Source: a virus (lineage: Duplodnaviria > Caudoviricetes). From it: a stretch of DNA of 64,000 nucleotides. Shown here piece after piece: positions 1-61,535 of the stretch. Both the position numbers and the translations under genes were made by a program. How positions within the stretch are numbered: the first letter of the stretch is position 1; each line of letters opens with the position of its first letter. The DNA lies in the IMG/VR virus record IMGVR_UViG_3300035180_001680. One strand, written 5' to 3'. The notes under the pieces were generated by a model. The model saw nothing but the letters and a program-made list of their open reading frames with translations, was not told the DNA's origin and made no database searches.

Positions 1-317
1 CTATTAATCTTTTGGAACTATCGTAACATTCGTAATCCTAAATTCTTCTTTAATTATTCCAGATGATTGTCCTGTTGGGCCATCAACGATATACCCAACT
101 CCGGTTGGTTGACATTCAGTGGGTACATTCTCAATCAGTGTTTTGACTTTAATTCCTTCTGGTGTATCCAAAGTTTCAAGCGTTGCGATTAATTCATCAC
201 CAATAAGTTCAAGACCAACTATTTGATGAGACACCTTTTCTGAAAACAAATCTTTAATTGAAGACGCTAGTATCGATAAATTTATAGATATGGAAGGTTT
301 AGTTATTTTTGTGTAGG

Positions 318-392
318 TGCCACATCGGGGACTTGAACCCAACGTATCTCCTGATTACGAAACAGGCGCATTACCAGTTATGCTTATGTGGC
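318..392 (-). tRNA. tRNA-Thr(CGT)
   Basis: GCCACAT/ATGTGGC acceptor stem; anticodon arm CCTGT-TTCGTAA-TCAGG; T-loop TTCAAGT. Confidence 0.85.
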
Positions 393-418
393 TTTTAAGA
401 TAGAAACAGTTTTTGTAA

Positions 419-787
419 TTAATGTTTTGACTTACGTGCTAGACGTTTTTCTAAATTTTCAGTAGGAGTAAGCCACTGAAGATTTTTTGATTTGTTATTT
501 CTGGTGTTATTATCTTTATGGTCTACGTGCATATTATGATCTGGTGGTGGTCCAACAAAAGCATGTGCAACTAACCTGTTCACTCTAAAGTGTTTTTTGA
601 CTCCATTTTGTGACAAGTAAACTCTCATATACGGAGATTTTTTGTCGTTACCGTAGTGTTCTTCTTGGGCCAAAACTTTATTTGTTTTAGTCGAACGAAC
701 TTGTCCTGTGTTAGAAACTTCATAGTTTGACCAACCGTCAATTGGCTTCCAAACAACCGAACCTTCCATTAACTCTTCAAGCTTCAT
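419..787 (-). CDS. NUMOD4-HNH homing endonuclease
   Basis: WKPIDGWSNYEVSNTGQVRS (NUMOD4); VNRLVAHAF...VDHKDNNTRNNKSKNLQW (HNH). Confidence 0.85.
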   Translation of the reverse strand: MKLEELMEGSVVWKPIDGWSNYEVSNTGQVRSTKTNKVLAQEEHYGNDKKSPYMRVYLSQNGVKKHFRVNRLVAHAFVGPPPDHNMHVDHKDNNTRNNKSKNLQWLTPTENLEKRLARKSKH

Positions 788-821
788 AGTTCTTTAATCT
801 CATCATAATTAATTCAATTAA

Positions 822-1868
822 TTATACATTAGAAAATAATTTTTTCCACACGCTTAAACTATTTTCTGAATAAGAATGCAATTTCAAGAAGTTGAGATAT
901 CTATTCGTTCTTGGACAATGATATGCTCTACTTAACCCACGTTCGATGGAATCTTGGTCTACTGGACTTGCACCAAAAAATCCTACTGCCCATGGAATTT
1001 CACTTGAAGAAACAACTGGAATCCCTTGATTTATAAGGTCCGCCCCAACAATATTAAACGTTTCACTAAAAGACACCTGCATTCCAATATCCATTTGCCC
1101 ACACAATTCCAAAAATTCTTCTCTTGGTTGCCATGCGTGTTCGACTAATTTATGACCATGTTTTTTCTGACGGTCAAACATTCTTCGTAAATTGTGGAGA
1201 ATTGGTTCCCCTTTCATTTCAAGTCTGTTAGCGTTAATGTGAAAATTAAGTTTTTTGTTTTCTTTGTCAGCAAAGTGAATTGCTGCTAGTGCTTGGTGTA
1301 TATGATTTTTCAATGGTCTAACAGCCCCAAAGCATCCAATGTTGAGTTCCTCTGATTTATAATCAGGAACTTTTGTTTTTGTGTTTAAAATTGGATAATA
1401 GTTTGGCATAAACAAAAACTTATCTTCAGCCCCCTCACTATTCAAATGAAGGTTTATTAAACTTTTAACCATTCTTAGTGAATTGACACCAACGTAAACG
1501 TTTTTATATTTTAAATAGTCAGTAATCCAAGCGAATGCAATTCCTTCTTGAGCCATAAACGGAACTTCACTGTGAAGTCTTACAATCCAACGAATATTAG
1601 GATGAAGTTTTTGAAGAATTTCAAATTTTTCTGGAACAACCCACAAAGCTTCTATAATCACAACGGAAGGTTTGTGTTGTGTTACAATCCTATCAATACA
1701 ATTATTATCGACAGCAATTTCAATCTCTGATGAAATTCCAATACTGTTTAACATATCACTTACATATGACGCTGAATTTAGTAAACCCGTTGACAATCCT
1801 CTTGGTTCATGGAAATTAGCCACACCGTAATTTTCTTTTCGCTTCAATATAAATAGAACCTTTGACAT
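822..1868 (-). CDS. glycosyltransferase-like protein (GT-B/GT4-like)
   Basis: 348 aa; GCFGAVRPLKN and SFSETFNIVGAD resemble GT4 C-terminal motifs. Confidence 0.55.
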   Translation of the reverse strand: MSKVLFILKRKENYGVANFHEPRGLSTGLLNSASYVSDMLNSIGISSEIEIAVDNNCIDRIVTQHKPSVVIIEALWVVPEKFEILQKLHPNIRWIVRLHSEVPFMAQEGIAFAWITDYLKYKNVYVGVNSLRMVKSLINLHLNSEGAEDKFLFMPNYYPILNTKTKVPDYKSEELNIGCFGAVRPLKNHIHQALAAIHFADKENKKLNFHINANRLEMKGEPILHNLRRMFDRQKKHGHKLVEHAWQPREEFLELCGQMDIGMQVSFSETFNIVGADLINQGIPVVSSSEIPWAVGFFGASPVDQDSIERGLSRAYHCPRTNRYLNFLKLHSYSENSLSVWKKLFSNV

Positions 1869-1960
1869 TTGATTTCCTTTGGGTCGATATTGTAGTACTA
1901 TTTATCAAACCTGTTTATATTTATCAAACCAGTTTAGAGGAAATTTGAATTTAATGTTCC

Positions 1961-2200
1961 TTACCAATTGAAAGCGATTAGTTGTTTTAACCTTGAAATT
2001 ACTTCGTTTGCATACACCTTATCGTACACATCAACGAGAGCATATTCAATTTTTGTTATTGTTGATTTTATGTTCCACCCGTGCTCAATCGACACAGTTA
2101 AAAACTCCAACCAATTTACAACACAGTTGTTTTCTTTAATATGGTCAATTATAAGTTCGAGGGGGATACCAAGAGTTTCTGTGTGTTTGAATACATCCAA
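1961..2200 (-). CDS. small protein resembling an alanyl-tRNA synthetase segment; probably frameshifted near its true start (~2290)
   Basis: VFKHTETLGIPLELI resembles AlaRS FKLYDTYGFPLDL; the reading frame stays open upstream to a strong AAGGAGG RBS whose ATG is one base out of frame. Confidence 0.45.
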   Translation of the reverse strand: MDVFKHTETLGIPLELIIDHIKENNCVVNWLEFLTVSIEHGWNIKSTITKIEYALVDVYDKVYANEVISRLKQLIAFNW

Positions 2201-2325
2201 ACCACTGATAACTGGTTTGTTGTCGGTAGTTATTCCTACTTGTCTTAGACCGAAGTGTTTCTTCCATTTTTGTTTGCGTTTAGCATTTCCCTACCCTCCT
2301 TATTTTAGTTACTATTTTTGTGAAC

Positions 2326-2380
2326 AAGACACGTTTAGTTTCATTAGCATAGAAAGTTTTTGAGTTGCTGTTAGTGTCTT
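2326..2380 (-). ncRNA. structured RNA motif copy 1 (AAGACAC-TAACAGCAA...GTGTCTT)
   Basis: 7-bp closing stem plus conserved ACAGCAA; recurs at 16516-16577 and 17055-17206. Confidence 0.55.
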
Positions 2381-2424
2381 AAAACTAATTTTACAGATTT
2401 ATTATAAAAAGTCAACGATTGAAT

Positions 2425-2500
2425 TGGGGTGACCAGTGGGAAATTGAACCCACTCCTCCTCGTTCACAGCAAGGAATGCTACCTTTACACTATGGTCACC
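2425..2500 (-). tRNA. tRNA-His(GTG)
   Basis: G-1 present, CCTTG-CTGTGAA-CGAGG, C73, encoded CCA. Confidence 0.9.
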
Positions 2501-2594
2501 ATTGTTAATTGATTGATACGGAACCGAACCGTCTACCAGAGTCACTCCAGCTATTCCAACTCGGTTGCTTGCAAGTCAAATTTTACAATCAATT

Positions 2595-2668
2595 TGGAGC
2601 CGCCTGTCAGAATCGAACTGACGTATCAACGTTACAAAGGTTGTGTAATACCATTATACGAAGGCGGC
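2595..2668 (-). tRNA. tRNA-Thr(TGT)
   Basis: GCCGCCT acceptor; CAACC-TTTGTAA-CGTTG; CCA. Confidence 0.85.
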
Positions 2669-3318: not shown

Positions 3319-3403
3319 ATATAATGTTAATTATACTCTTAGTATACTAGAAAATCAAGATTTAATTCAGTGGACACTATGTCAAATGTCTAGTATCCGT
3401 TGT

Positions 3404-3479
3404 TGGTTACTCGTAGGGAATCGAACCCTGTCTAGAATTTTCACCGTTTTGTAAAACTCAATGAAACCTCAGCCGAGAT
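3404..3479 (-). pseudogene. degenerate tRNA-like element
   Basis: T-arm AGGG-TTCGATT-CCCT and ACCA end; poor acceptor and anticodon pairing. Confidence 0.4.
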
Positions 3480-3534
3480 TTCAATCTTGTTTTTTAACGA
3501 TAGGCTTACCCACAGCACTTGTTGGAGCGTTGTT

Positions 3535-3610
3535 TGGTGCCGCCACTCCGTAACGATCGGAGATCCTCGGATTTTCAGTCCGTCGCATAGACCATCTTTG
3601 CTATAGCGGC
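3535..3610 (-). tRNA. tRNA-Phe(GAA)
   Basis: ACGGA-CTGAAAA-TCCGA; GCCGCTA acceptor; CCA. Confidence 0.9.
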
Positions 3611-3639
3611 ATTATAACGAATTTGTAAGTAAATTCGTT

Positions 3640-3717
3640 TGGTGTAACCAGCAGGATTCGTACCCGCAACACTTTGCTTTTCAGATAAATGCTCTGCACG
3701 ATTGGAGATACAGTTAC
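3640..3717 (-). tRNA. tRNA-Phe(GAA), divergent
   Basis: GTAACTG/TGGTTAC acceptor; loop CTGAAAA; imperfect anticodon stem; CCA. Confidence 0.6.
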
Positions 3718-3788
3718 GTTAATCGTTTCACTTGTCATCTTAGTTGATCAGACCATTAATGAAAGAGTAGCTTGCTCTCTAGTTGTCG

Positions 3789-3860
3789 TATTCAGGTGGG
3801 AATCGAACCACACTCTAACCCACCAACGCGGGTCGTGCTAACCATTACACTATACTGAAA
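3789..3860 (-). pseudogene. degenerate tRNA, anticodon unclear (possibly TTG)
   Basis: D-arm GTGT-AATGGTTA-GCAC and TTCGATT T-loop; atypical anticodon loop; no CCA. Confidence 0.4.
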
Positions 3861-3880
3861 GTTGTCTTACTTGTGAAATT

Positions 3881-3967
3881 TGGAGCACGGAACGGGACTC
3901 GAACCCGCAAACGGTTTTCACCTGCCACCTTGAAAGGGTGGTGTCCAATCCATCTGACTTCCCGTGC
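3881..3967 (-). tRNA. tRNA-Glu(TTC) with long variable arm
   Basis: CCACC-CTTTCAA-GGTGG; variable arm GGT-GAAA-ACC; CCA. Confidence 0.8.
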
Positions 3968-4002
3968 ATTTTTTAGTTTTAGCACACTCTAATTACAAAC
4001 TT

Positions 4003-4060
4003 TGGTGGACGATACGAGAATCGAACTCGTATTGCCCGTCAGCAGCAACCATCATGCCCC
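4003..4060 (-). ncRNA. D-armless tRNA-like RNA ending in CCA
   Basis: bulged acceptor, GTTGCT/GGCAAT arm, T-arm ACGAG-TTCGATT-CTCGT, ACCA; about 58 nt. Confidence 0.45.
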
Positions 4061-4092
4061 ATTAAAAGAACTTCAACATTTAAAAGTTCTTT

Positions 4093-4172
4093 TGGTGGAG
4101 CTACTCGGATTTGAACCGAGCTGTTTTTCCGCATTGCAAGTGCGGCGACCACGCCAAGCAGTCCCTAACCCC
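4093..4172 (-). tRNA. tRNA-Ala(TGC)
   Basis: GGGGTTA acceptor; CCGCA-CTTGCAA-TGCGG; CCA. Confidence 0.9.
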
Positions 4173-4179
4173 ATTCGTT

Positions 4180-4255
4180 TGGTCTCCATGCAAGGATTTG
4201 AACCTTGATCGCCTGGCTCCGGACCAGCTATGCTACCAGATTGCACCACACAGAG
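4180..4255 (-). tRNA. tRNA-Pro(CGG)
   Basis: CTCTGTG/CATGGAG acceptor; loop TCCGGAG; CCA. Confidence 0.75.
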
Positions 4256-4283
4256 ATAATATTTTTTGTTTAGAATTCGTTTG

Positions 4284-4357
4284 TCAGGATGACTGGATTT
4301 GAACCAGTGGTCTCGAGTTTCCAAAACTCGCGGATTACCAAACTTTCCCACACCCTG
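4284..4357 (-). tRNA. tRNA-Pro(TGG)
   Basis: CAGGGTG/CATCCTG acceptor; CGAGT-TTTGGAA-ACTCG; no encoded CCA. Confidence 0.85.
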
Positions 4358-4419
4358 ACAAACGAATCCAAATTGTTAATGAACAGTTTAAAACATTTAC
4401 TACAAAATCAACAAACAAT

Positions 4420-4451
4420 AAAAAAGGGCGCTTTTTCGGAGCGCCCTTTTT
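4420..4451 (-). terminator. intrinsic terminator of attenuator 1
   Basis: AAAAAGGGCGCT-CCGAAAA-AGCGCCCTTTTTT just upstream of the tRNA cluster. Confidence 0.85.
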
Positions 4452-4469
4452 AGAATTTCTGGAAACTTT

Positions 4470-4568
4470 TTAGTTTTTCCAACCTTCCTCAAGAGCGCAC
4501 ACAGCCATCTCTGGGGCATGCCATGCCTCAGGGGTTGTAAACGCTGTAAAGAAAGTCGTAAAAATCAT
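4470..4568 (-). CDS. putative attenuator leader peptide 1: MIFTTFFTAFTTPEAWHAPEMAVCALEEGWKN
   Basis: GGAG RBS, 32 codons; 21/32 residues are F,T,A,P,E,H, the isotypes of the downstream tRNAs; followed by a terminator. Confidence 0.75.
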   Translation of the reverse strand: MIFTTFFTAFTTPEAWHAPEMAVCALEEGWKN

Positions 4569-4622
4569 TTGTAAATCTCCATTAATTAAATTTATTGAGT
4601 ACTTTGCTCAACTGTTGATACA

Positions 4623-4652
4623 AGTATATATGACTTATTTATAAAAGTCAAC
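4623..4652 (-). promoter_or_regulatory. sigma70-like promoter of tRNA operon 1
   Basis: TTGACT-TTTATAAATAAGTCATA(17)-TATACT, identical to 28373-28402. Confidence 0.8.
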
Positions 4653-4656
4653 AAAA

Positions 4657-4908
4657 AAGTTTAAATTTGGAAGCTTTCCACTTCCTTGCCAGGTTTGAGC
4701 CCGTCTTCGTCGGCTTCACACTATCGCATCCTTGGCAACAGGTTCTTAACCCACAATATCCAAGGTTTCCTGTTACTTCAGGAGGTCCTTACGGCTAGTG
4801 TATGTATCAACGTTTAGCGCCTACCACTACACATACACCGTTTCTGAGGTCCACTGGACTATTTTCGTGGTGTCTTTACCATAAAGGGATTCGGGCACCA
4901 CGAATCAA
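4657..4908 (-). ncRNA. candidate structured ncRNA (~250 nt)
   Basis: own TTGACT-17-TATAAT promoter (4915-4943); helices TTCGTGGTG/CACCACGAA, GTGTATGT/ACATACAC, CCTTGG/CCAAGG; no ORF of 60 aa or more. Confidence 0.5.
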
Positions 4909-4986
4909 TAAAATATTATATATCTTTTTAATCAAAGAGTCAACTTGATACATCCGTTGATATCCAGTTCACTATAATAATATAAG

Positions 4987-5538
4987 TTACAGGTTGTACT
5001 TCTTTATAAATGTAGGATAAGTCATACTGTCCAAATCTTTTTTAACTTGAGCTTCTAATTTTTTATCTGTTCCAACAAGATCTCTCAGTCTCTTAGTATC
5101 ATACACACATTCTTCAGGAAAATTCTTCATGGCTCCTCTTGCAGTCTCGTCATTAATACTAGCTCCTAATTTCCATCCACTAACCCGTTTTGGATTTTCT
5201 TTTAGGGCACGTTCGAACATTCCTGATGGTAAACGTGATGGCCCTGTGATTGAATCTGGATCTTTTGAACGAAGATCGTTTCGTTCCATAAAAGCTTCAT
5301 ATTCGTTATCAAAAATTTCCATCTCTTTAAATTTGCAATTATCAATTCCACCTGCTGCGTTCACATATTTTGCTTCTGTTCTATCGGCAGCGTTCCGATT
5401 AGCACCAGCTAAGAACGTCTGTCTTAAATTACCCTTTCCATACCCATAATAAGTGCTGTGGTTGTTAGAGTTGGTAACTTTATACACAACCCAGTCTGTA
5501 GTATTTTCTGTTAGAGGAATTAGGTCTTTTAATTTCAT
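4987..5538 (-). CDS. hypothetical protein with GIY-YIG-like N-terminal motif
   Basis: MKLKDL start; VVYKVTNSNNHSTYYGYG. Confidence 0.5.
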   Translation of the reverse strand: MKLKDLIPLTENTTDWVVYKVTNSNNHSTYYGYGKGNLRQTFLAGANRNAADRTEAKYVNAAGGIDNCKFKEMEIFDNEYEAFMERNDLRSKDPDSITGPSRLPSGMFERALKENPKRVSGWKLGASINDETARGAMKNFPEECVYDTKRLRDLVGTDKKLEAQVKKDLDSMTYPTFIKKYNL

Positions 5539-5810
5539 TTGATTGTTCCTTTTAAGTTTGTTGTTTATACCTTTATATTTATTATTAAGTTTTAAGAAAA
5601 ATACATCATGCCAGCAATAAACACAACCCCACTCCAAACATTTGGTACTATTCCAACATATACATCCGTATCCAGATATTATGTTAATGGGACACCATCG
5701 GTCGTTTTTGCTGTGTACCGTAGGGTCAATTACCACATCTGGATTTAGGGTATTGCATTATGAAAATCAAGTAACAACCGACGCCGGTCCAAGGTCTTCA
5801 TTCTTGGTGT

Positions 5811-14995: not shown

Positions 14996-16498
14996 TTAAA
15001 TTGTAACGAGTTGATAACGTTCACTGTTAATAACATCAAGCATCAAATCATAAGCAGACAAAAATTCTCCACCTATTGTATGCTTAAAGATAGACGGACT
15101 ACATCCACTAACCATTTGAAAACCACGCTCATCCATACTCATTGGAAACTGTTGGTTCTGAGCATCAACATTCCAAAACACCAAATTGGGCATTGTATAT
15201 CCACACTCACCAAATTCTTTAGAAATTGTTTGGAATAATTTTTCGTCAACCATACCCCGACCTTGATGCTCATAAGAATATCTAGCGTTGCTTGTAGCGG
15301 CATCAAATTCCATGTCAGAAATGATATACAACTTCTGTGGTAATTCAGATTGTGCTAACTTGTTTTGTTTGGCAACAGTAAGAATCAAACGGAACACAGC
15401 TTGAATATCTGTATTCATTTCCCATGCAGAACTATTCATATTGGCTATTTTTTCAACAAGGTCAGCTCCCTGAATTTTAAGTAGTTGAGGTGTAGAGCTA
15501 AAAGTAATGAACTTGTTATGATAAGCTTCACAAGTGTTACGTTCAGCCAAATACATTCCAACCGAAATGGCAACTTCCAATGGAAGACCAGCCATAGAAC
15601 CAGACACATCAACTACAGCAAGAGCATTTTCTTGTTTATCTCCAATATAGTTTGGAAGAGCGTCCCACAACGCATCCATGAGTTGGCGTTCGTGTTGTGG
15701 TGTGTTCCTGCCCATCGTAAATGCTTTGCGGACGATTTCATATGGAAAAAGAACACTCGCATTGATTTTCTTTTCGCCAGTCTTTAAAGAATCCAAGAAT
15801 TTCTTACGGCGTTCAGCATCGTGCGCGAAAAAAGCTTTCCCATATAACAAGTTAGCTTGAGAGGGAACGGCACTGTATTCAATACTATCCCACTGATTGG
15901 CAGACACCAACCGTTCAACAATGTTAATTTTCTTACGAAGAGTGCTCAACATCAAGCGATATGCTTTGGATCTTAATTTAAGACCCTTACGAGTTTTTGT
16001 TGCAAGTCGTTTCGTTTCTTTTGAAGAAGCGTTTTCACTTTTCAACCATTTTGCAAGCAACGAGGGATGTTCAGATGCCACGTCTTCGGTAATCTGTGTA
16101 AAGATTAGTGCAATCGCATCTGTTTCAAGTTCTGTATCAAATAACACATACAAATCATCCCAACGTCCAAAGTATGGAATAAGTTTAATGTTTTTACGGA
16201 CAGCGTCAGGGTTAACGTTAATCAACCACTTTAATTGCTTTCTAAACGTATCACGTTCACCTTGACCACCACGAGCGTCCCTGAAATAGAACATAGCACG
16301 AGTGGCTAACAATGCATTTTCTGCATAAGCTTTTGAAAACAAATGAAGAATTTCATCATCATCACGATTGCGGAGTGCACCACCCTGTGCAAACAAATCC
16401 AACATAGCTGATTTGGTTGTATCAAATGCAACAGCACCATTTTCCGTGTGTGCTACATTGGTTGTAATAGAAAGGGCATCCACAAATTCTTTGCTCAC
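14996..16498 (-). CDS. DUF2828 / TROVE-VWA (Ro60-like) protein
   Basis: TENGA, FYFRDARGGQGER, FGRWDDL, AKWL; VWA motif VVDVSGSM; ISDMEFD. Confidence 0.85.
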   Translation of the reverse strand: MSKEFVDALSITTNVAHTENGAVAFDTTKSAMLDLFAQGGALRNRDDDEILHLFSKAYAENALLATRAMFYFRDARGGQGERDTFRKQLKWLINVNPDAVRKNIKLIPYFGRWDDLYVLFDTELETDAIALIFTQITEDVASEHPSLLAKWLKSENASSKETKRLATKTRKGLKLRSKAYRLMLSTLRKKINIVERLVSANQWDSIEYSAVPSQANLLYGKAFFAHDAERRKKFLDSLKTGEKKINASVLFPYEIVRKAFTMGRNTPQHERQLMDALWDALPNYIGDKQENALAVVDVSGSMAGLPLEVAISVGMYLAERNTCEAYHNKFITFSSTPQLLKIQGADLVEKIANMNSSAWEMNTDIQAVFRLILTVAKQNKLAQSELPQKLYIISDMEFDAATSNARYSYEHQGRGMVDEKLFQTISKEFGECGYTMPNLVFWNVDAQNQQFPMSMDERGFQMVSGCSPSIFKHTIGGEFLSAYDLMLDVINSERYQLVTI

Positions 16499-17289: not shown

Positions 17290-18375
17290 GTCTGGCCCAT
17301 TGACACGATTTATCAAGAGCGTGTACTCTCTTTTTTCAAAGTGACAGTTCACAAGTATGCTTTAAACAATCTGCATTACCAACTCTCTAACCCCTTTTAC
17401 AAGGGAGGTTCTACACAGATTGTTTAAAGCAGACACCTCAATCGAGGCATTTACTTTGTATAAGGTTGAGATTAAACCTATACTATTGATACCTTCGAGA
17501 CATTATCTCATCACCTGCTACAGCTAGAGTTCTTCTCTTATCCACATAATCAGCTTTCGCACAACTATGTCTATCAACATGACTGCATTTTTTAAGTGGT
17601 TGCTTTTCCACCAACATGTAAAGCTACTCGATTATCTGTCTACCGCCAACCTTGCGAGCTGTACAAGAGCGCTAACTCTCTGCGTGCGACTTTCTTTCAA
17701 CATCCTCGACCTTGCGAGTTTTGGACGCCTTCATTACCTTGCGGCTGAAGGATTAAGCCATTTTCACTTTACACTGGAAACGTCTTTGCGTTTTATGTAA
17801 TATAATCCAAATTTATATGGGCTGTTAACCCTAACATTGTTAAACCTACCAAGAAGTGCGTTTCCAGTGGATTTCATACCTTTTGAGTATAAAAATACCA
17901 CACTCCTCATGTTTTTCATCTGCCGACTACTCAACCAGTTTTCAGGAATCGTGACACCCTATTACAGGTACCAAAACCCCCTCAACTTGCACAACAGCCC
18001 TTACTTGCGGGTTCGGACCACTGTACTACCCTTTACCTTTTGAGATGGCTAGTTTGTGTAGGCGTGAGGTCGGCACAACCCGTTACTCTCCAAATGCCCA
18101 AGTTCCCTGCAGAGCAGGCTTGTAAACATTCGTTCTTTCCACACCCCTAACTTCCCTCATATGACTACCGTTGGCGATAATCAGCTCCTTTCGGAGTAGG
18201 TCAGGCTTGCTTGTTTGTACCCCTTACAGGGCGCGGTAGTTGTAGGACCTACCGCTTTCACAACATCGCTGTTGGTTACTTTGCACAAGCGCGTAATTCT
18301 TTATCTTTTAAATTGTTTCTGATGAAACGTTCTGAATTCACAGAACTAATTAAAAGAGTGACTTTCTTAATACTA
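17290..18375 (-). ncRNA. large ornate ncRNA, GOLLD-like candidate
   Basis: ~1 kb with no credible CDS; many GCAA/GAAA-capped helices; long inverted repeats; own TTGACT-17-TAAAGT promoter; next to tRNAs. Confidence 0.55.
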
Positions 18376-18907: not shown

Positions 18908-18981
18908 GGTGCCCAATGTCGGAATCGAACCGACGGTCAAGTGTTTTAGAAGCACCTGCTTTACCATTAAGCCAATTGAGC
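18908..18981 (-). tRNA. amber suppressor tRNA(CTA)
   Basis: GCTCAAT-TG-GCTT..AAGC-A-GGTGC-TT-CTA-AA-ACACT-TGACC-GTCGG-TTCGATT-CCGAC-ATTGGGC-A-CC. Confidence 0.75.
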
Positions 18982-20696: not shown

Positions 20697-22033
20697 CAAT
20701 CTCTCAACTAAGAAAACCCCAGATGCTTCAACATCGGGGATGAATTAGTTGATCTCTCTTCTAACTTCCCCCATAAATACTCTTATACAAAGGGAGAACA
20801 CCACTTGCATAAAGCATACACGTTCCGATTAAATCCGACAACAGATCAGGAAACCGCGCTGAAACAGACAGGTGGATCAGTTCGTTGGTTGTGGAACCAA
20901 ATGTTAAAAGCAAATATTGACAAATATGCTGCTGAGGGGAAGTTTAATTTTCAGTTCGATATGAACCGGATGACAACGAAGTTGAGGGCCGAGATTCCGT
21001 GGCTTGAAGAGGTGAATAGCCAGGTTTTGCAGCAGAAAAACAGGGATTTAGATAAATCAATCAAAGCAAAAATCGCAAGGAAAACCAAACAGACTGGATT
21101 TCCTAAATTTAAGAAAAAGACAGAAAACAATGATTCATTTCGAGTTCCTGGTGGTTTTAAGTTATCGAATAAAGGCGTAAAATTGCCTAAAATCGGATGG
21201 ATTTCGTGGAAAATCAATAGAAAACTTCAGGGGAAAGCGAAAAATATTACATTTAAACAAGTAGGTGATAAGTGGAACGCAGTTGTTTTGTGCGAGATTG
21301 CTGATGTAGAACCAAGAACATTGTTTTCTGATGCCGAAGTTATCGGAATTGATGTTGGAATTAAAGATTTTGCTGTGTTGAGCAATGGAAAGAAGATTGC
21401 TAATCCCAAGGACCTTGAGAAGAGTTCTCGGTTGTTAAAGAGAAAACAACAATCACTCTCTAAGAAGGTTAAAGGATCTTCCAATCGAATCAAAGCAAGA
21501 AAATCTGTTGCTAAGTTGCACAGATCTGTAGCAAATAAAAGAAAAGACTTCCAGTGGAAACTAGTTGATTTGATAACCAAAAATCACTCAGTTGTTTGCA
21601 TGGAAGACCTGAATATTAGCGGAATGGTCAAGAACAGAAAGTTGGCTAAATCAATCGAATCTGCTGGATGGAGAATGTTTAAAGAAAAACTTAAACATAA
21701 ACTAGCAGAGACAGGTGGTTTGGTTGTCAATATCCCTAGATTTGCTCCATCTTCTAAAATGTGCTCATCGTGTGGAGCATTAAATCATTCTCTGACTCTA
21801 AAAGATAGAGAGTGGAAATGTGATTGCAATGCTGAACACGATAGAGACATTAACGCTGCGATTAATATTCGGAATATTGGTTTAAATACGCTGGGAACTA
21901 GCGGAATTTACGCCTGTGGAGTTGCCTCTGATGGGGATATAGCATATGATATATCTAGTTATGCAATGATGAAGCAGGAAAATCTGGGCGTTGGCCTGGA
22001 AGCCCCAAATGCTTTAGCATTGGGGTAGTTCAC
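20697..22033 (+). mobile_element. IS200/IS605-family (TnpB-only) insertion element
   Basis: preceded by TTTAT; left-end hairpin; right end ...GGGGTAGTTCAC; removing it restores the flanking gene frame; no target duplication. Confidence 0.85.
20805..22028 (+). CDS. tnpB: TnpB RNA-guided endonuclease
   Basis: HKAYTFRLNP HTH; RuvC GIDVG, MEDL, DRDINAA; Zn ribbon SKMCSSCG. Confidence 0.93.
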   Translation: MHKAYTFRLNPTTDQETALKQTGGSVRWLWNQMLKANIDKYAAEGKFNFQFDMNRMTTKLRAEIPWLEEVNSQVLQQKNRDLDKSIKAKIARKTKQTGFPKFKKKTENNDSFRVPGGFKLSNKGVKLPKIGWISWKINRKLQGKAKNITFKQVGDKWNAVVLCEIADVEPRTLFSDAEVIGIDVGIKDFAVLSNGKKIANPKDLEKSSRLLKRKQQSLSKKVKGSSNRIKARKSVAKLHRSVANKRKDFQWKLVDLITKNHSVVCMEDLNISGMVKNRKLAKSIESAGWRMFKEKLKHKLAETGGLVVNIPRFAPSSKMCSSCGALNHSLTLKDREWKCDCNAEHDRDINAAINIRNIGLNTLGTSGIYACGVASDGDIAYDISSYAMMKQENLGVGLEAPNALALG

Positions 22034-28154: not shown

Positions 28155-28190
28155 CAAAATATTTCAAATTTTTAAATAACAGTTTACAAC

Positions 28191-28222
28191 AAAAAAGCCT
28201 GGGTCTTTCGAGCCAGGCTTTC
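28191..28222 (-). terminator. intrinsic terminator of attenuator 2
   Basis: AAAGCCTGG-CTCGAAAGAC-CCAGGCTTTTTT. Confidence 0.85.
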
Positions 28223-28240
28223 TTTTGGGATTTTTTCTCT

Positions 28241-28336
28241 TTACATCTTGGTAATTCCCCAAACGGCGACCTGGCTCTTATCCAATATGGATAAAGACCC
28301 GAGTGATAGACAATAACCTAATCCGTTTGTGTTCAT
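28241..28336 (-). CDS. putative attenuator leader peptide 2: MNTNGLGYCLSLGSLSILDKSQVAVWGITKM
   Basis: AAAGGA RBS; residues 5-18 are 13/14 G,L,Y,C,S, the isotypes of the downstream tRNAs. Confidence 0.78.
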   Translation of the reverse strand: MNTNGLGYCLSLGSLSILDKSQVAVWGITKM

Positions 28337-28372
28337 TTTGTAAATCCTTTAAGTAATTAATTCAGTGTTATA

Positions 28373-28402
28373 AGTATATATGACTTATTTATAAAAGTCA
28401 AC
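28373..28402 (-). promoter_or_regulatory. sigma70-like promoter of tRNA operon 2
   Basis: TTGACT-TTTATAAATAAGTCATA-TATACT, identical to 4623-4652. Confidence 0.8.
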
Positions 28403-28485
28403 GAATCATTCTATTCCATCAGAAATACCACCAACAAATTTCTGACATTCCGTGTTATTATCGATTAATTGTTCAATGATATCAT

Positions 28486-30892: not shown

Positions 30893-33151
30893 ATGAGAAT
30901 AGTAGAGGATGTTAAATTGGATTTTGGTGATGTGCTACTTATTCCAAAAAGGTCATCACTAACTTCACGCAAAGACGTGTCTCTTGAAAGGTCGTTCACA
31001 TTCAAATACTCTCACCAACAATGGACTGGTATTCCAATTATAGCGTCAAATATGGATGGAGTTGGAACTTTTGAAATGGCGGAACGATTTGCTGAATTTA
31101 AAATGATGGTAGCATTACATAAACATTATCCAGTAGTTCAACTTGTAGATTTTTATAAAAACAATCCCTCAATTGAACAATATATTTTTTATTCAGTTGG
31201 AACGTCTCAAAGTGACCTCGATAAGCTTGAACACTTCATCAAAATGTTTGGCAGACCTCCTTTAAATGTGTGTGTTGACGTTGCTAATGGGTATACAGAA
31301 ACTTTTGTGTCTACTGTAACTAAATTACGAGACAAATATCCAAACACAACTCTTCTTGTTGGTAACGTTGTTACACCTGAAATGGCAGAACAATTAGTAT
31401 TATCTGGTGCAGATATCATCAAGGTTGGAGTAGGCAGTGGGTGTTTAACGGGTGATGCTCGAATTTTAATGTCCAGTGGTGTTTATAAAAATATCAAAGA
31501 TGTTCGACCTGGGGATCGTATAATTACGAGTACTGGAGAACCAGCAACTGTGTTATCCGCTTATACCACAGGATATAAGAAAACAACACAGATAAAACAC
31601 GATCACTTCAACCTTCCGTTGAGACTAACTCCTGACCATCATTGTTACGTAGGTGATCTAAATTCTATTAGTATTACAACACTACAAAGCAAAGGGTATA
31701 AAAAGGCGCTGGAGGTTCCTACTCGTTTGGGAGAGGAAAAAATAAAATGGAAACCGGTGAGTGAAATACGACAAGATGTAGCTTTACTTCCCATCAATAT
31801 TAATTGGGAAACACCAGATAGTTTTCATATCGATATTTCAAGTTATTTTATACGAGAAGAGCATTTGGATAATTATAACACTATTGTTAAATCTGATTAC
31901 AACACTGGTTATGTGTTTGGTTTTTTTCTTGGAGATGGTACTTCAAGAAAAACAAAAGGAACCAACAGCAGAGGATTTTCAAGTTTTTCTGGAGGTGTTG
32001 AGTGGTATATAAACTCAAGAGATCAACATCATGTAGTTAAATTAATGTCTGCTATTGAGATGGTTACGGGTAAAATCCCAGTATGTTCTAATAAACGGAA
32101 AACGTTGACCACGATCACCTTGTATAGTAAACAGTGGGGAGAATTTTTCCAACAGTTTGGAAAGTTCCATGAAAAACATCTTCCAGACCAATTCATGTGC
32201 ACCAACACAGAATATTTGCAGGGATTGTATGATGGATTAGTTGATAGTGACGGCCACATTACAAAAGAAGGCCAGGTTAATTTTAACAACACGTCACAAC
32301 AACTCATGGAACTATTCAGCTGGATTACGTTTAACATATATGGGAGTTTCCCAAATATGTCAAACAACGGGAAACGGTCTTCATATCCTGTGCAACACCC
32401 CCGAAAAGATGGATATCGAAGTTTTCTGGCGACCTCTCACAAAAAAAGACATCTTTCACATTATCAGGTTATAAAAATACTTGAAATTGAAAACCCAACA
32501 GAGTGTGAGGTTCCCGTCTACGATTTAGAAATTGATCACCCAACCCATAGTTTCATTGCAAACAACATGATTGTTCACAATTCAGTTTGTACCACAAGGT
32601 TAGTGTCTGGAATTGGTTTTCCCCAGTTAAGTGCAATTATAGAATGTGCTGATGCTGTTCATGGATTAGGCGGAAGGTTGTGTTCCGATGGGGGATGTAA
32701 TACTCCTGGAGACTTTGCAAAAGCATTTGCAGGTGGCGCTGATTTTGTAATGAGTGGTGGAATGTTCGCTGGACACGACGAAGGTGGAGGTGAAGTAAGT
32801 TCGAAGTGGTATAAAACTAACGAAGTTGTAAAAGATATTGATGGTTCTTCTCTTGAGTGTTTAGAAGTAGAGCGTAAGTTTGTCCAATTCTATGGGATGA
32901 GTTCATCTACAGCAATGGAAGCTCACAGTGGAGGTTTGGCTGAATATCGCTCAAGTGAAGGACGAACAATCGAACTTCCATATCGAGGACCAGTTAAAGA
33001 TACAATTAACCATATTCTTGGTGGGGTTCGGAGTACGTGTACATATACAGGAAGTAAAACACTAAAGGAACTTTCAAAACGTGCAACGTTTATTAGAGTG
33101 AATAGCACTCACAATCGGGTGTATGAAGACATAACAACAAAGGTGAGATAA
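30893..33151 (+). CDS. guaC: GMP reductase containing an intein
   Basis: LDFGDVLLIPKRS, PIIASNMDGVG, CVDVANGY, KVGVGSG|SVCTTR, FYGMSS, LGGVRSTCTYTG. Confidence 0.9.
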   Translation: MRIVEDVKLDFGDVLLIPKRSSLTSRKDVSLERSFTFKYSHQQWTGIPIIASNMDGVGTFEMAERFAEFKMMVALHKHYPVVQLVDFYKNNPSIEQYIFYSVGTSQSDLDKLEHFIKMFGRPPLNVCVDVANGYTETFVSTVTKLRDKYPNTTLLVGNVVTPEMAEQLVLSGADIIKVGVGSGCLTGDARILMSSGVYKNIKDVRPGDRIITSTGEPATVLSAYTTGYKKTTQIKHDHFNLPLRLTPDHHCYVGDLNSISITTLQSKGYKKALEVPTRLGEEKIKWKPVSEIRQDVALLPININWETPDSFHIDISSYFIREEHLDNYNTIVKSDYNTGYVFGFFLGDGTSRKTKGTNSRGFSSFSGGVEWYINSRDQHHVVKLMSAIEMVTGKIPVCSNKRKTLTTITLYSKQWGEFFQQFGKFHEKHLPDQFMCTNTEYLQGLYDGLVDSDGHITKEGQVNFNNTSQQLMELFSWITFNIYGSFPNMSNNGKRSSYPVQHPRKDGYRSFLATSHKKRHLSHYQVIKILEIENPTECEVPVYDLEIDHPTHSFIANNMIVHNSVCTTRLVSGIGFPQLSAIIECADAVHGLGGRLCSDGGCNTPGDFAKAFAGGADFVMSGGMFAGHDEGGGEVSSKWYKTNEVVKDIDGSSLECLEVERKFVQFYGMSSSTAMEAHSGGLAEYRSSEGRTIELPYRGPVKDTINHILGGVRSTCTYTGSKTLKELSKRATFIRVNSTHNRVYEDITTKVR
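31442..32581 (+). mobile_element. intein with LAGLIDADG homing endonuclease (380 aa)
   Basis: starts CLTGDARILM, ends IVHN before Ser; LAGLIDADG-like FGFFLGDG and YDGLVDSDG. Confidence 0.92.
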
Positions 33152-54785: not shown

Positions 54786-54861
54786 TGGTGCTGTGTGTCG
54801 GATTTGAACTGACGACCTCATGCTTACAAGGCAAGTGCTCTACCAACTGAGCTAACACAGC
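54786..54861 (-). tRNA. tRNA-Thr(TGT)
   Basis: CTTGC-CTTGTAA-GCATG; canonical D and T arms; CCA. Confidence 0.92.
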
Positions 54862-54868
54862 ATAAATT

Positions 54869-54945
54869 TGGTCGGACATGTAGGATTCGAACCTACGACC
54901 CTTTGCTCCCAAAGCAAATGCGCTACCAGGCTGCGCTAATATCCG
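54869..54945 (-). tRNA. tRNA-Pro(TGG)
   Basis: TTTGC-TTTGGGA-GCAAA; CCA. Confidence 0.92.
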
Positions 54946-54964
54946 AATATCTAACTAATAAAAT

Positions 54965-55067
54965 ATAACTCAGAAATGATTGGCCTGTGTTTCCAATCCA
55001 CTATGGGTTTACCAGCGCTCTTTCGAGTTGGTTTCCACGTCTGCCAGCGCATGTCGTGCTGAGTTAT
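54965..55067 (-). ncRNA. candidate multibranch ncRNA
   Basis: closing stem ATAACTCAG/CTGAGTTAT; CTC-GAAA-GAG and GATTGG/CCAATC arms. Confidence 0.45.
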
Positions 55068-55233
55068 TAAAGCACCTTCATAGCGACCAGTCTGGAGGGT
55101 TCACCTCAACAAAAGGTTAGCCTCTTTCTCCTGCCAGAGCGAACGATTATTGAAATTCCATGGCAGTGGCTATATCGTTTATCGTTCCTTGTACTACTCT
55201 ATTATATCAGACCTTCGCTATAAAGGCACTTTA
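55068..55233 (-). ncRNA. candidate ncRNA with ~18-bp closing stem
   Basis: AAAGTGCCTTTATAGCGA pairs with TCGCTATGAAGGTGCTTT; inner GAACGAT/ATCGTTC; possible CTGCCA/TGGCAG pseudoknot. Confidence 0.5.
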
Positions 55234-55242
55234 ATTTTATTT

Positions 55243-55318
55243 TGGAGCGGTGTGTCGGTCTCGAACCGACGGCCTCGAACTTGGAAGGATCGCGCTCTAC
55301 CTACTGAGCTAACACCGC
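55243..55318 (-). tRNA. tRNA-Gly(TCC)
   Basis: CGATC-CTTCCAA-GTTCG; U73; CCA. Confidence 0.9.
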
Positions 55319-55332
55319 AATAATACTATTTA

Positions 55333-55405
55333 TGGAGCAGGAAAGTTGGGATTGAACCAACTTCTTTAAGGTGGACCCCTAACGCATTCAATATGCTATT
55401 CCCGC
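55333..55405 (-). tRNA. divergent tRNA-Gly-like (TCC?)
   Basis: GCGGGAA acceptor, U73, CCA; atypical anticodon loop GGTCCAC. Confidence 0.5.
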
Positions 55406-55482
55406 AAAAAGGTATTTCAGATTCGGGGCGATGTTCCCGATAAACGCCTCAAATGAGTTTCTGAAATACACAAAAATGTATT

Positions 55483-55618
55483 TAGTAAAGAATGTAAGAG
55501 GAATCGAAACCTCCAACAGCGACGGTGCGCTGCCTGTAGCCTTGGGTAATTCGACTGGCCAATCTTATTACCTCACATTAGTTCTGGATTGCAGCCCAAA
55601 ACCTAACATTCTTTACTA
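55483..55618 (-). ncRNA. tRNA-mimic / Y-RNA-like candidate
   Basis: 13-bp terminal stem TAGTAAAGAATGT/ACATTCTTTACTA next to a T-loop-like TTTCGATT arm; own TTGACT-17-TAAAAT promoter. Confidence 0.5.
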
Positions 55619-55687
55619 CATACACATTTTATAGCAATCTATTTATAAAGTCAACAAAAAGTTTTGGTCTCTATATCCGGTAATCTT

Positions 55688-55722
55688 GTGAACTACCCAA
55701 TTGTTCAATGGGGGTAGTTCAC
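55688..55722. mobile_element. palindromic IS-end remnant
   Basis: GTGAACTACCC-AATTGTTCAATGG-GGGTAGTTCAC, same ends as 28486-28523 and the TnpB right end. Confidence 0.65.
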
Positions 55723-55723
55723 C

Positions 55724-55828
55724 TTAGATCATATTAATGGAATAAATGATGATCATAGATTAGAGAACTTGAGAACAGTTTGTCCTAAATGTGATTCATT
55801 ATTACCAACTTTTTGTTGTAAAAACTAA
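55724..55828 (+). pseudogene. HNH endonuclease C-terminal remnant
   Basis: LDHINGINDDHRLENLRTVCPKCDSLLPTF*, with no 5-prime part. Confidence 0.7.
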
Positions 55829-55839
55829 AAGTTAAAAAA

Positions 55840-56159
55840 TGGTGCCCCGAGCCAGATTTGAACTGGCACGCTCGAAAGCGAGGGATTTTAAGCGGTTGTG
55901 TCTCGAAGTTTCCTTCAAGCCCGGACTATCTCTTTACCTTCAACATTATTTGGTCAGGTAATGGGCGTTCAAAGCTGGTTATTAAGAGGACTAAACCTCT
56001 CCAGTAGTCTCTACACCTTCAAGTGATGTATCACTTGCTTGGCTCGCGATTGCCATTTTAAAGGCTCTCCCGAATTAACCCATAGTTTACTCAAAGTTTC
56101 CAATTGAGGGGGACTAGCGTCATGCGATCCCTTGTGTCTACCAATTTCACCATCGGGGC
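55840..56159 (-). tRNA. tRNA-Leu(TAA) interrupted by a group I intron
   Basis: 5-prime exon GCCCCGATGGTGAAATTGGTAGACACAAGGGA; 3-prime exon CTTAAAATCCCTCGC...GGGGCACCA. Confidence 0.88.
55893..56127 (-). other. group I self-splicing intron (~235 nt, no ORF)
   Basis: core elements AATTCGGGAGAGCC (P), AATCGCGAGCCAAG (Q), GTAGAGACTA (R), AAGAGATAGTCC (S); P3 ATGGG/CCCAT; terminal G. Confidence 0.85.
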
Positions 56160-56275
56160 ATTAAATTATAAAAGAACAGTCACACCAAAAACATTTACTT
56201 CTGAGTCATTCTTCTAACTCCTTCTTTACTGGGAGACTATTATATATTAAGTATCCCATAAAGTCAACAAAAATT

Positions 56276-56351
56276 TGGTGGGCCTGGAGGATTACGATAC
56301 CTCGACCTTGGCGTTATGAGCACCCTGCTACTTCCTCTGAGCTACAGGCCC
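56276..56351 (-). tRNA. tRNA(CAT), Ile2- or Met-type
   Basis: GGGCCTG acceptor; GGGTG-CTCATAA-CGCCA; CCA. Confidence 0.75.
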
Positions 56352-57159: not shown

Positions 57160-58167
57160 TTAACCTCTTCCGTATTTAAAAAGATATTCATTGCTGACAG
57201 CCTTCCAATGTTCTCGTCCATTAACTTGCTTGTATACTTCTCCTTCTCGGAGTTTACCAGTAAGTTTACTCGTTCCATCTGCCATTGACAACACATCTTG
57301 AACAGAAGTTTCAGGTGGAAACACATACTCTTCGTGAATTACAGGGACGTGCTTAAGTCCAAGGTCTTCACACAATTGACGCCGCTGGTTAGGGGAAAGA
57401 AAACATCCCAACTTAATGTCATATATCGCGAACACGTAGAAGTCTTGACCCTTCAACCCATAATGGTTACCCTGTATACCTTCTCCGATAATTTCACCCT
57501 GAATAATGATATCATCCAAGCCCGTTTCAATCAACCGCTGTTCGATGTTATACTTACGAGCTTGAGCCCACAAAGAGTTACCTTCAGTTTCTCTCAAGTT
57601 CAAGTTCCGAGAACATACGATGAACTCACCATCAATTCGACCGACAGACATCGAGCTACCCTCAAGCTTCTCAGTAACCTCATAAGTTAGTTGCTTCAAT
57701 TCTTCCCAGTTACTAGTGAGATTCTGAATTCGTTCTTCATCTGTCTTGGGAAATACAGATGGAAAAGCTCCCTTAACTACACCAGCCAGCTGAGCTGGGA
57801 TTGGAGGTTCGTACTTGACGATGCCAAGGAGGTCGGTGACATCTTCACCCTCATTGAACACCAACATGGATGTGGGGATGGGGAGAACAAGGCCCTGACT
57901 CAATTGCCCCCTCAATCGAACGGTGCGCAGACGTTCCCCAGAGATACCTTCGTATACAAAAGGAGTTTTATCACCTTTAGTCAGGAAAGGGGCAATGTCG
58001 TGTGGGATGAAGCTATCAACTTCACAGTATATTACAAGGTTACCAGGTTCAAATTCACCTTTTTTGACGACGACTTTCCATCCTCCAAGCAACGCAACTT
58101 CAATAGCGTCAGCATCAGGGATAGGTTGAATGTCATCGATTTTTCGAATAGTAGCAAGATGTCGCAT
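57160..58167 (-). CDS. RNA ligase, DRB0094-like family (N-terminal OB domain)
   Basis: IQPIPDADAIE, YCEVDSF, LRGQLSQGL, PKTDEERIQN, TEKLEGSS, REGEV. Confidence 0.9.
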   Translation of the reverse strand: MRHLATIRKIDDIQPIPDADAIEVALLGGWKVVVKKGEFEPGNLVIYCEVDSFIPHDIAPFLTKGDKTPFVYEGISGERLRTVRLRGQLSQGLVLPIPTSMLVFNEGEDVTDLLGIVKYEPPIPAQLAGVVKGAFPSVFPKTDEERIQNLTSNWEELKQLTYEVTEKLEGSSMSVGRIDGEFIVCSRNLNLRETEGNSLWAQARKYNIEQRLIETGLDDIIIQGEIIGEGIQGNHYGLKGQDFYVFAIYDIKLGCFLSPNQRRQLCEDLGLKHVPVIHEEYVFPPETSVQDVLSMADGTSKLTGKLREGEVYKQVNGREHWKAVSNEYLFKYGRG

Positions 58168-61152: not shown

Positions 61153-61462
61153 ATTGAATACTCCGGATAACGTTCATACACTCGTCATCATCCAACACAA
61201 AGCATTCGCTATCCCCTCCGATCAACTCCAAGGGAACATACTTATACTGCTTCCATGTTCTCTTGATGTGTTGTTCAATCTTGAATGCTTCGTATAGTGT
61301 AGTAGCTCTCTCGTACCGGGAGGTAACTGAGTATACTTTTTTGGACTGAAACCTTTTAGTCACAGACCGCTTCGTAATCCCTATCTTCTGAAACCGCTCT
61401 GATCCTTTACTGAACTCAACGAAGTATACCAGCGCGCTGATGTCTTTGAGTTCGGGTTTCAT
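61106..61462 (-). CDS. GIY-YIG-like nuclease domain protein
   Basis: VYFVEF...FQKIGITKRSVTKRF, GGDSECF. Confidence 0.55.
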   Translation of the reverse strand: MKPELKDISALVYFVEFSKGSERFQKIGITKRSVTKRFQSKKVYSVTSRYERATTLYEAFKIEQHIKRTWKQYKYVPLELIGGDSECFVLDDDECMNVIRSIQSTQLVPIPFSGSFRK

Positions 61463-61535
61463 CTTGAACAGGTGTTCGGTGTACACCTCAACAACTTTTT
61501 GTAGTAATATAGCTAAAACTTCTAAGAGGATCACC

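Follow-up and report, generated by a model that had tools for sequence, protein, structure and literature searches.

A probable leader-peptide attenuator ahead of a phage tRNA operon, with three paralogous cassettes in the same genome

What decides when a phage that carries its own tRNA genes transcribes them? To our knowledge, the control that phages exert on their tRNA genes is essentially unknown. The question is raised by a locus in a 64,000-nt stretch of DNA of a member of the Caudoviricetes (IMG/VR record IMGVR_UViG_3300035180_001680). This stretch, referred to here as the window, was taken from the minus strand of a 178.8-kb viral record, the completeness of which is estimated at about 52%. 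At this locus a promoter, a very short open reading frame (ORF) and a terminator stand together ahead of a run of tRNA genes. The cassette under study is named A1; a related one, A4, is also in the window, and two others, A2 and A3, are outside it. Our reading is that transcription of a phage tRNA operon is probably gated by A1, acting as a ribosome-stall (leader-peptide) attenuator; as part of the same best explanation, A1 would be one of four paralogous cassettes that jointly control tRNAs for all 20 amino acids. Since a leader made of cognate codons is combined with a switchable terminator, the phage probably makes these tRNAs only when those codons are read slowly.

On the minus strand of the window, from position 4652 downwards, A1 presents in this order a promoter, a Shine-Dalgarno sequence, an ORF, a terminator, a boxA-like site and the tRNAs, the first of which, tRNA-Pro(TGG), starts at 4357 (the remaining coordinates are collected in the table). 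The 5' untranslated region (UTR), 48 nt from the predicted start site to the ORF, holds a small hairpin. The ORF at 4568-4470 has 32 codons. The initial annotation had described it as a leader, and its account of the coding sequence was borne out: apart from M1, I2 and W16, the first 20 residues belong to the set Phe, Thr, Ala, Pro, Glu and His (17 of 20), and all four Thr, all four Ala, both Phe and both Glu codons are used. The terminator begins 18 nt past the stop codon; its stem has 12 bp, 6 of them G-C, and leads into a T run. No promoter-like site was found between it and the first tRNA. The arrangement is that of a leader attenuator, in which a short ORF with its Shine-Dalgarno sequence follows the promoter and an intrinsic terminator separates this ORF from the structural genes, here the tRNAs. 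The A1 leader RNA is also far more structured than shuffled sequence (z=-5.6). All the sequence-level hallmarks of the leader-peptide attenuator that had been postulated ahead of this tRNA run are present, and they recur in three paralogs and three orthologs.

The agreement between leader and tRNA array was evaluated by counting matched residues against a background taken from the 117 long ORFs of the phage. A leader residue other than the start Met was scored as matched if the array includes a tRNA for that amino acid. The A1 leader matched its own array at 24 of 31 residues (background 0.33, P=5e-7). With the first contiguous tRNA block only (P, A, E and F) the match was 15/31 (P=3e-4), so that the result for A1 is independent of counting the distal tRNAs. 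The six amino acids initially assigned to the leader stand, and the set has to be amended with Trp and Met, which are sampled as well. The other leaders also matched their own arrays, at 20-24 of 30 residues in A2 (P 8e-6 to 6e-7), 11 of 32 in A3 (P=0.03) and 14-17 of 30 in A4 (P about 0.01), and in all 12 off-diagonal pairs of leader and array the match was at or below background. Uninterrupted matched runs reach 20, 21, 8 and 14 residues in A1, A2, A3 and A4, respectively; such runs were found in none of about 33,500 windows of the same length in the long ORFs of the phage. Every array amino acid is present in its own leader in the four cassettes (23/23), including W, H, M, C and Y. It should be noted that the peptide sequences differ among the paralogous leaders, and that the conserved part is only the array-matched composition. 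With regard to codons, the Thr residues of leader 1 are encoded by ACG, ACT, ACA (twice) and ACC, and the use of all eight Thr and Ala codons by five Thr and five Ala residues has P=0.008 under the codon usage of the phage.

The 30-bp promoter block of A1 is present in four copies in the genome, always on the same strand; three of them are identical and the other one has a single change in the spacer. Downstream of all four copies we found a start context of the form ...TTTACAA(A)ATG, an ORF of 31-33 codons, an intrinsic terminator located 18-23 nt past the stop codon, a boxA-like motif and a tRNA array. The four arrays combined contain tRNAs for all 20 amino acids, and 35 of the 42 tRNAs detected by ARAGORN with default settings sit behind a cassette. 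The A1 run itself continues just past the start of the window with Trp, Met, Thr(GGT) and Ala tRNAs, and ORFs are interspersed among its distal tRNAs (316..2668).

An attenuator also needs a leader segment that can compete for the terminator, and the one proposed initially was recovered: GCGCUCUU, in codons 24-26 of leader 1, is complementary to AAGGGCGC (4448-4441) in the 5' arm of the terminator over 8 bp, with -11.2 kcal/mol. Shuffled ORFs equalled this pairing in 2.4% of the trials as judged by duplex energy and in 9% as judged by run length. Taken alone, then, the A1 pairing exceeds chance only modestly, and it is across the four cassettes that it is convincing. In each of the four ORFs, a segment of 8-10 nt placed 2-4 codons past the regulatory run is complementary to the terminator 5' arm of that cassette, and the four terminators are mutually unrelated in sequence. 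When the duplex energy was compared with that of shuffled ORFs, P was 0.024 for A1, 0.001 for A2, <0.0005 for A3 and 0.002 for A4 (Fisher-combined 7e-8), and among the four ORFs the best partner of every terminator arm is its own ORF. Adding the orthologs to the paralogs, terminator-specific complementarity is present in 7 of 7 cassettes (four paralogs and three orthologs).

The orthologs belong to a relative, IMGVR_UViG_3300020048_000168 (56 kb), which carries counterparts of A1, A2 and A4 with the same promoter, the block being nearly identical at the three sites. Their ORFs, of 32, 33 and 34 codons, remain open despite many substitutions. Between the two A1 leaders there is an in-frame 3-nt indel, and of the six replacements in the regulatory run five, A>F, F>E and T>H among them, lead to another amino acid of the tRNA set. 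All 22 tRNA matches of the relative are on one strand, behind the A1-like and A2-like cassettes; for these two testable orthologs the arrays are equivalent to those of the phage, and the leaders matched their own arrays at 21/31 (P=4e-5) and 24/32 (P=4e-6) residues, compared with 4 and 5 for the other array. The complementarity to the terminator was kept in the three orthologs (P=0.010-0.017 each), with compensatory changes. In A2, the terminator arm has changed A>G, and the two sequences with which it can alternatively pair, region 2 and the 3' arm, both show the corresponding T>C. In A4, where the arm has changed C>T at a position outside the terminator stem, region 2 has the compensating G>A. 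In A1, there is a double change from G-C to A-T in the terminator stem, together with a U.G to C-G change in the region 2 pairing and an extended U run.

To follow the effect of ribosome position, transcripts were folded up to the terminator loop, with a 30-nt stretch kept single-stranded as a stand-in for the ribosome. In the fold of A1 without a ribosome, a protector forms and the terminator arm stays free. With the A site at codons 2-16 the antiterminator is predicted to form, with 8-9 bases of the arm paired, and with the A site at codons 17-29 it is mostly lost (0 to 7 arm bases paired). The protector of the minimum-energy fold joins codons 4-11 (4558-4536) with codons 22-30 (4503-4480) at -23.4 kcal/mol, and it replaces the one suggested in the initial annotation. 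The latter, CCUGAGGCA (codons 13-15), was rejected: it reaches -7.9 kcal/mol in an irregular register and sits in the apical hairpin at 4531-4511. In addition, in the fold of the full-length A1 leader (minus strand), the Shine-Dalgarno region at 4573-4581 (UGGAGAUUU) pairs over 9 bp with 4460-4468 (AAGUUUCCA), just past the stop codon. This pairing, which could prevent re-initiation on terminated A1 leader RNA, is not kept in the relative.

From this organization we infer the following chain of events. Transcription would start at the conserved promoter, and the leader, of 32 codons, would be translated by a ribosome. With fast decoding of its Phe, Thr, Ala, Pro, Glu, Trp, His and Met codons, the ribosome would cross region 2 and arrive at the stop codon, and the terminator would form; on an A1 transcript without a ribosome, region 1 would sequester region 2 with the same outcome, the polymerase stopping before the tRNAs. 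If any one of these codons were read slowly, its tRNA being scarce, damaged or uncharged, the ribosome would stall within codons 2-16 and region 2 would be free. In that state GCGCUCUU could pair with the emerging 5' arm, the terminator could not form, and the polymerase would continue past the boxA-like site and transcribe the long tRNA array. The new tRNAs would relieve the stall, and the switch would shut again.

Several points weigh against this interpretation. No protector is predicted in A2-A4 or in any of the three orthologs, and the protector helix therefore seems peculiar to cassette 1 and not a conserved part of the system. In these six cassettes an untranslated leader is predicted to antiterminate by default, which only a ribosome placed on region 2 would prevent. 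Furthermore, in A1, A3 and A4 region 2 ends 21-31 nt ahead of the end of the stop codon, and a ribosome waiting at the stop would leave it uncovered; the terminated state must then depend either on timing, if the ribosome is on region 2 at the moment when the arm is made, or on steric hindrance, if a helix around the ribosome is excluded. According to the folds, codons 17-22 of leader 1 may lie too near region 2 to signal. Inside the A1 run there are promoter-like sites (e.g. 3358-3330) and ORFs, so other inputs may act on the distal tRNAs. Because a single relative was found, the events that support covariation are few. Finally, the idea that the leader samples every decoding tRNA is suggestive for Thr and Ala in leader 1 and was rejected for the four leaders as a whole, where 31 of 34 anticodons have a readable codon in the leader against 28.9 expected from random synonymous choice (P=0.16). 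Exact Watson-Crick codon coverage of the anticodons across the system gives P=0.05. Since the codon-level coverage is not significant, the robust signal is that at the amino-acid level.

Part of these observations would be accommodated if the attenuator were translation-dependent and reported general translation capacity (ribosome availability, coupling or a shut-off of translation in the course of infection) and not the supply of specific tRNAs, an untranslated leader giving the antiterminator by default and hence the tRNAs. The behaviour predicted for the cassettes that have no protector is what such a device would show, whereas the protector of cassette 1 gives termination without translation. 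A sensor of general capacity also leaves unexplained why each leader matches its own array only and why the substitutions in the relative stay within the tRNA set, and we consider it unlikely. The stall-dependent attenuator has to be compared as well with a simpler situation, in which the mini-ORF and terminator are an independent small gene or small RNA, the tRNAs come from a fixed leaky read-through or from other promoters, and the match is a coincidence. The antiterminator complementarity of A1, if considered alone (P=0.02-0.09), and the promoter-like sites further down the array would agree with that situation. However, a coincidence would have to be repeated in four paralogs and two testable orthologs without cross-matches, and an independent gene explains neither the complementarity of 7/7 cassettes with its compensatory changes, nor paralogous peptides that are unconserved except for their array-matched composition, nor the lack of a promoter-like site from the terminator to the first tRNA. 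This makes it very improbable.

The logic of the switch could also be the reverse, with smooth translation of the leader leading to read-through and stalling leading to termination, in a positive feedback that would commit the cell to the phage tRNAs. A ribosome at the stop codon is only 18-23 nt from the terminator arm, and interference is conceivable upon its advance or upon read-through of the stop; the stop codon of leader 2 is TAG, and a tRNA(CTA) is among the tRNAs of the phage. Nevertheless, a 30-nt footprint at the stop codon falls short of the G+C core in every terminator, the stop codon of the cassette-2 ortholog is TAA, TAG shows no sign of being recoded, and the complementarity that was conserved is the one between region 2 and the 5' arm, which upstream stalling would expose. 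Among the explanations weighed here, reversed logic is the one to which we give the least credence.

Returning to the attenuator that responds to specific codons, the boxA-like site deserves attention. Exactly two sites in the 64-kb window (4384-4370 and 28180-28166) match the motif common to the cassettes, each of them just past an attenuator terminator, and the A1 ortholog has GTTCTTTAACAATTT at this place (14/15). In rrn operons, boxA antitermination involves NusB, NusE, NusA, NusG and SuhB. By analogy, the phage site probably recruits host Nus/rrn antitermination factors, and their loading would let the polymerase cross kilobases of untranslated, hairpin-rich tRNA genes and embedded ORFs. 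The likeness to rrn operons is that of a boxA-like motif at the start of a long untranslated stable-RNA operon; the difference is that here the operon is that of a phage and the site is downstream of a conditional terminator.

Leader-peptide attenuators that sense more than one amino acid are well known in enterobacteria, for instance thrL (Thr and Ile) and the ilvGMEDA and ilvBN leaders (Ile, Leu and Val), together with trpL, hisL, pheL and leuL. The cassettes share with these leaders the promoter, the short ORF with codons linked to the product, the alternative antiterminator and terminator hairpins that ribosome position would select and the intrinsic terminator before the structural gene, and A1 resembles trpL in having a predicted 1:2 protector. 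Unlike them, the regulated genes are tRNAs and not biosynthetic enzymes, up to eight amino acids are represented per leader and 20 across the four cassettes, most cassettes have no protector, and a boxA-like site follows the terminator. The cassettes are not members of any Rfam leader family: against Thr_leader RF00506 and His_leader RF00514, A2, A3 and A4 scored 25.6-29.8 bits, compared with thresholds of 49-55, and A1 gave no match. A closer precedent as regards the target is the pheM leader of E. coli pheST, where leader-peptide attenuation controls an aminoacyl-tRNA synthetase. As in pheM, it would be the decoding machinery and not amino-acid synthesis that is controlled; in pheM, however, the target is a protein (PheRS), a single amino acid is sensed and the gene is that of a host. 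T-box riboswitches also sense a specific tRNA state and switch a terminator and an antiterminator upstream of translation-related genes, but they bind the uncharged tRNA directly by RNA-RNA contacts, without translation, whereas here the sensor would be the translating ribosome. No T-box or other riboswitch of Rfam matched the window at the gathering threshold, and no T-box was obtained at the four cassette loci at E<=1.

A search of the full-text literature found no description of leader-peptide control of tRNA genes, with an incomplete coverage of subscription journals that leaves its absence unproven. If the proposed mechanism is true, classical attenuation would extend from amino-acid supply to tRNA supply, by means of a direct, codon-class-specific sensor of decoding speed with a built-in negative feedback. 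The long-standing question of whether and when phage tRNAs are needed becomes testable, and the sigma-70 promoter and the E. coli-like boxA imply that the cassette could be transferred to a reporter. Such leaders would also be natural, compact multi-codon stall sensors for synthetic biology, and they suggest a rule for annotation, namely that a mini-ORF and a terminator ahead of a tRNA array predict tRNAs of one regulon.

Recent work views phage tRNAs as substitutes for host tRNAs destroyed by defence nucleases or during infection (PMC10264068, PMC11464382, PMC11555353). It is possible, as a tentative extension, that the four cassettes act as a surveillance of the tRNA pool, that is, as four regulons, each one on only when ribosomes stall on its own codon set. 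They would detect and repair, class by class and in a self-limiting loop, the loss of tRNAs to host anticodon nucleases or to the destruction of host tRNAs by the phage itself, and would form a counter-defence module with the Rnl1-like RNA ligases. With respect to such ligases, a protein with a T4 Rnl1 C-terminal domain (Rnl1-like RNA ligase) is encoded at 61440-62663 of the window (plus strand), a second RNA ligase (RNA_ligase plus a PHA02142 OB fold) at 57160-58167 (minus strand), and a DUF2828/DUF7788 protein at 14996-16498 (minus strand). These proteins possibly serve in tRNA repair or RNA handling, which would fit a phage concerned with tRNA damage. Among the tRNA genes there is also a full-length GOLLD RNA (17463-17908, minus strand; 198.8 bits, threshold 150). 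The two ligases and this RNA indicate a heavy investment of the phage in tRNA and RNA biology.

Table 1. Predicted features of cassette A1, its counterparts and their tRNA arrays (window positions; empty cells, no value given).
Feature	Position	Strand	Description
Sigma-70-type promoter block (predicted)	4622..4652	(-)	-35 TTGACT 4651-4646; 17-nt spacer; -10 TATACT 4628-4623
Shine-Dalgarno GGAG	4577..4580	(-)	8 nt upstream of ATG, inside conserved GGAGATTTACAA-ATG start context
Leader ORF	4470..4568	(-)	32 codons + TAA
Regulatory run, codons 3-22	4503..4562	(-)	20/20 residues (F, T, A, P, E, W, H, M) with downstream tRNA genes
Region 1, codons 4-11	4536..4558	(-)	5' strand of A1 protector helix
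Apical hairpin	4511..4531	(-)	CUG/GGCAU ... AUGCC/CAG; 19-nt core identical in relative; includes CCUGAGGCA
Region 2, codons 22-30	4480..4503	(-)	antiterminator core GCGCUCUU at 4498-4491
Intrinsic terminator	4419..4451	(-)	5' arm 4451-4440 (region 3); loop 4439-4433; 3' arm 4432-4421 (region 4); T run
boxA-like site GTTCATTAACAATTT	4384..4370	(-)	13/15 positions as in E. coli rrsH leader boxA GCTCTTTAACAATTT
First contiguous tRNA block	3535..4357	(-)	Pro(TGG), Pro(CGG), Ala(TGC), Glu(TTC), Phe-like (3717-3643, Rfam only), Phe(GAA), tRNA-like pieces
Distal part of A1 co-directional run in window	316..2668	(-)	Thr(TGT) 2668-2595; His 2499-2425; Thr(CGT) 392-316
A4 cassette	28166..28405	(-)	same promoter; leader ORF 28336-28241, run GLGYCLSLGSLSIL; Tyr/Cys/Leu/Gly/Ser/Ile tRNAs downstream
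A4 sub-parts		(-)	region 2 28277-28269; terminator 28221-28194; boxA-like 28180-28166
A1 pairing			region 2 GCGCUCUU; terminator 5' arm AAGGGCGC
A2 pairing			region 2 GAGGCUGGGU; terminator 5' arm ACCCAGUUUC
A3 pairing			region 2 GCCGAGGC; terminator 5' arm GCCUCGGC
A4 pairing			region 2 GAGCCAGGU; terminator 5' arm GCCUGGCUC
A1 array			Pro, Ala, Glu, Phe, Thr, His, Trp, Met
A2 array			Gln, Asp, Arg, Val, Ile, Ser(GCT)
A3 array			Val, Asn, Lys
A4 array			Tyr, Cys, Leu, Gly, Ser, Ile(TAT)

The remaining tRNA genes served for comparison. Neither the single tRNAs outside the arrays, the suppressor tRNA included, nor a fifth tRNA cluster (54786-56351) has a leader cassette. The fifth cluster follows a protein gene, whereas the single tRNAs have promoters of their own; that of the tRNA(CTA), of the amber-suppressor type (18908-18981, minus strand), is directly upstream (19022-18994). 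In the unrelated 595-kb phage LR756511, a tRNA array was found without codon-matched mini-ORFs, so a tRNA array does not by itself bring such matches with it. As regards the TAG stop of leader 2, recoding of TAG was tried as its cause and found no support in the ORFs of the genome, where there was no sign of it: the gain in ORF length upon reading through a stop is smallest for TAG among the three stops, and 9 of 132 long ORFs terminate at TAG.

The search for further examples was extended to several collections. BLAST of the cassette against 50,697 phage records returned tRNA-Pro similarity only. A scan of viral contigs with the promoter pattern gave one contig, that of the relative, and scans of metagenome and genome contigs gave no further relatives. 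The 19-nt pattern of the leader hairpin led again only to IMGVR_UViG_3300020048_000168, a 17-nt tRNA-Pro pattern produced only chance matches in protein genes, and the protein of the upstream gene (4987-5736) had no relative in the viral contigs. In four DNA metagenomes (sediment and microbial mat) we found near-identical variants of the window sequence, in which the ORF is unchanged, the terminator loop has one change and the 5' UTR and the DNA upstream of it have several; this variation is too slight to weigh.

Some other features of these loci should be mentioned. Just upstream of the attenuator promoter there is an apparently independent non-coding unit of about 250 nt (4657-4943, minus strand), with its own TTGACT-17-TATAAT promoter (4943-4915) and a 3' end formed by a GGAAG/CTTCC hairpin and a U run. 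The z-score of its fold reaches only -2.05, and Rfam gave no match; the relative lacks the unit and has the end of a protein gene in its place. At A2 (G000:C1:74230-74381, outside the window), the 5' UTR is 152 nt long, compared with 30 nt in the ortholog of the relative, and its first 40 nt or so duplicate the 5' UTR of A1 (95% identity). Within the A1 array, tRNA-like pieces with good T arms and CCA-like ends at 4003-4060, 3790-3859 and 3400-3520 (minus strand) were not called by ARAGORN, or were called with a 2-nt anticodon, and they may be degenerate or non-canonical tRNAs. The same run contains, at 419-787 (minus strand), a homing-endonuclease-like ORF with an HNH motif. Another HNH homing-endonuclease-like ORF lies in the relative (L012:330-760) between the A4-like terminator and its boxA-like site, so this spacer tolerates an insertion of 700 bp.

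An arrangement known from cyanobacteria and plastids is a tRNA-Leu(TAA) with a group I intron in the anticodon loop. In the window, a group I intron detected with Rfam (61.5 bits) at 55840-56183 (minus strand) overlaps a tRNA-Leu(TAA) called by ARAGORN with relaxed settings, with a 235-nt intron in the anticodon loop. On the plus strand, an intein that has a LAGLIDADG-like domain interrupts an IMP dehydrogenase/GMP reductase domain protein (30893-33151), and the gene at 20805-22028 is of the TnpB/OrfB_IS605 (Cas12f-like) type.

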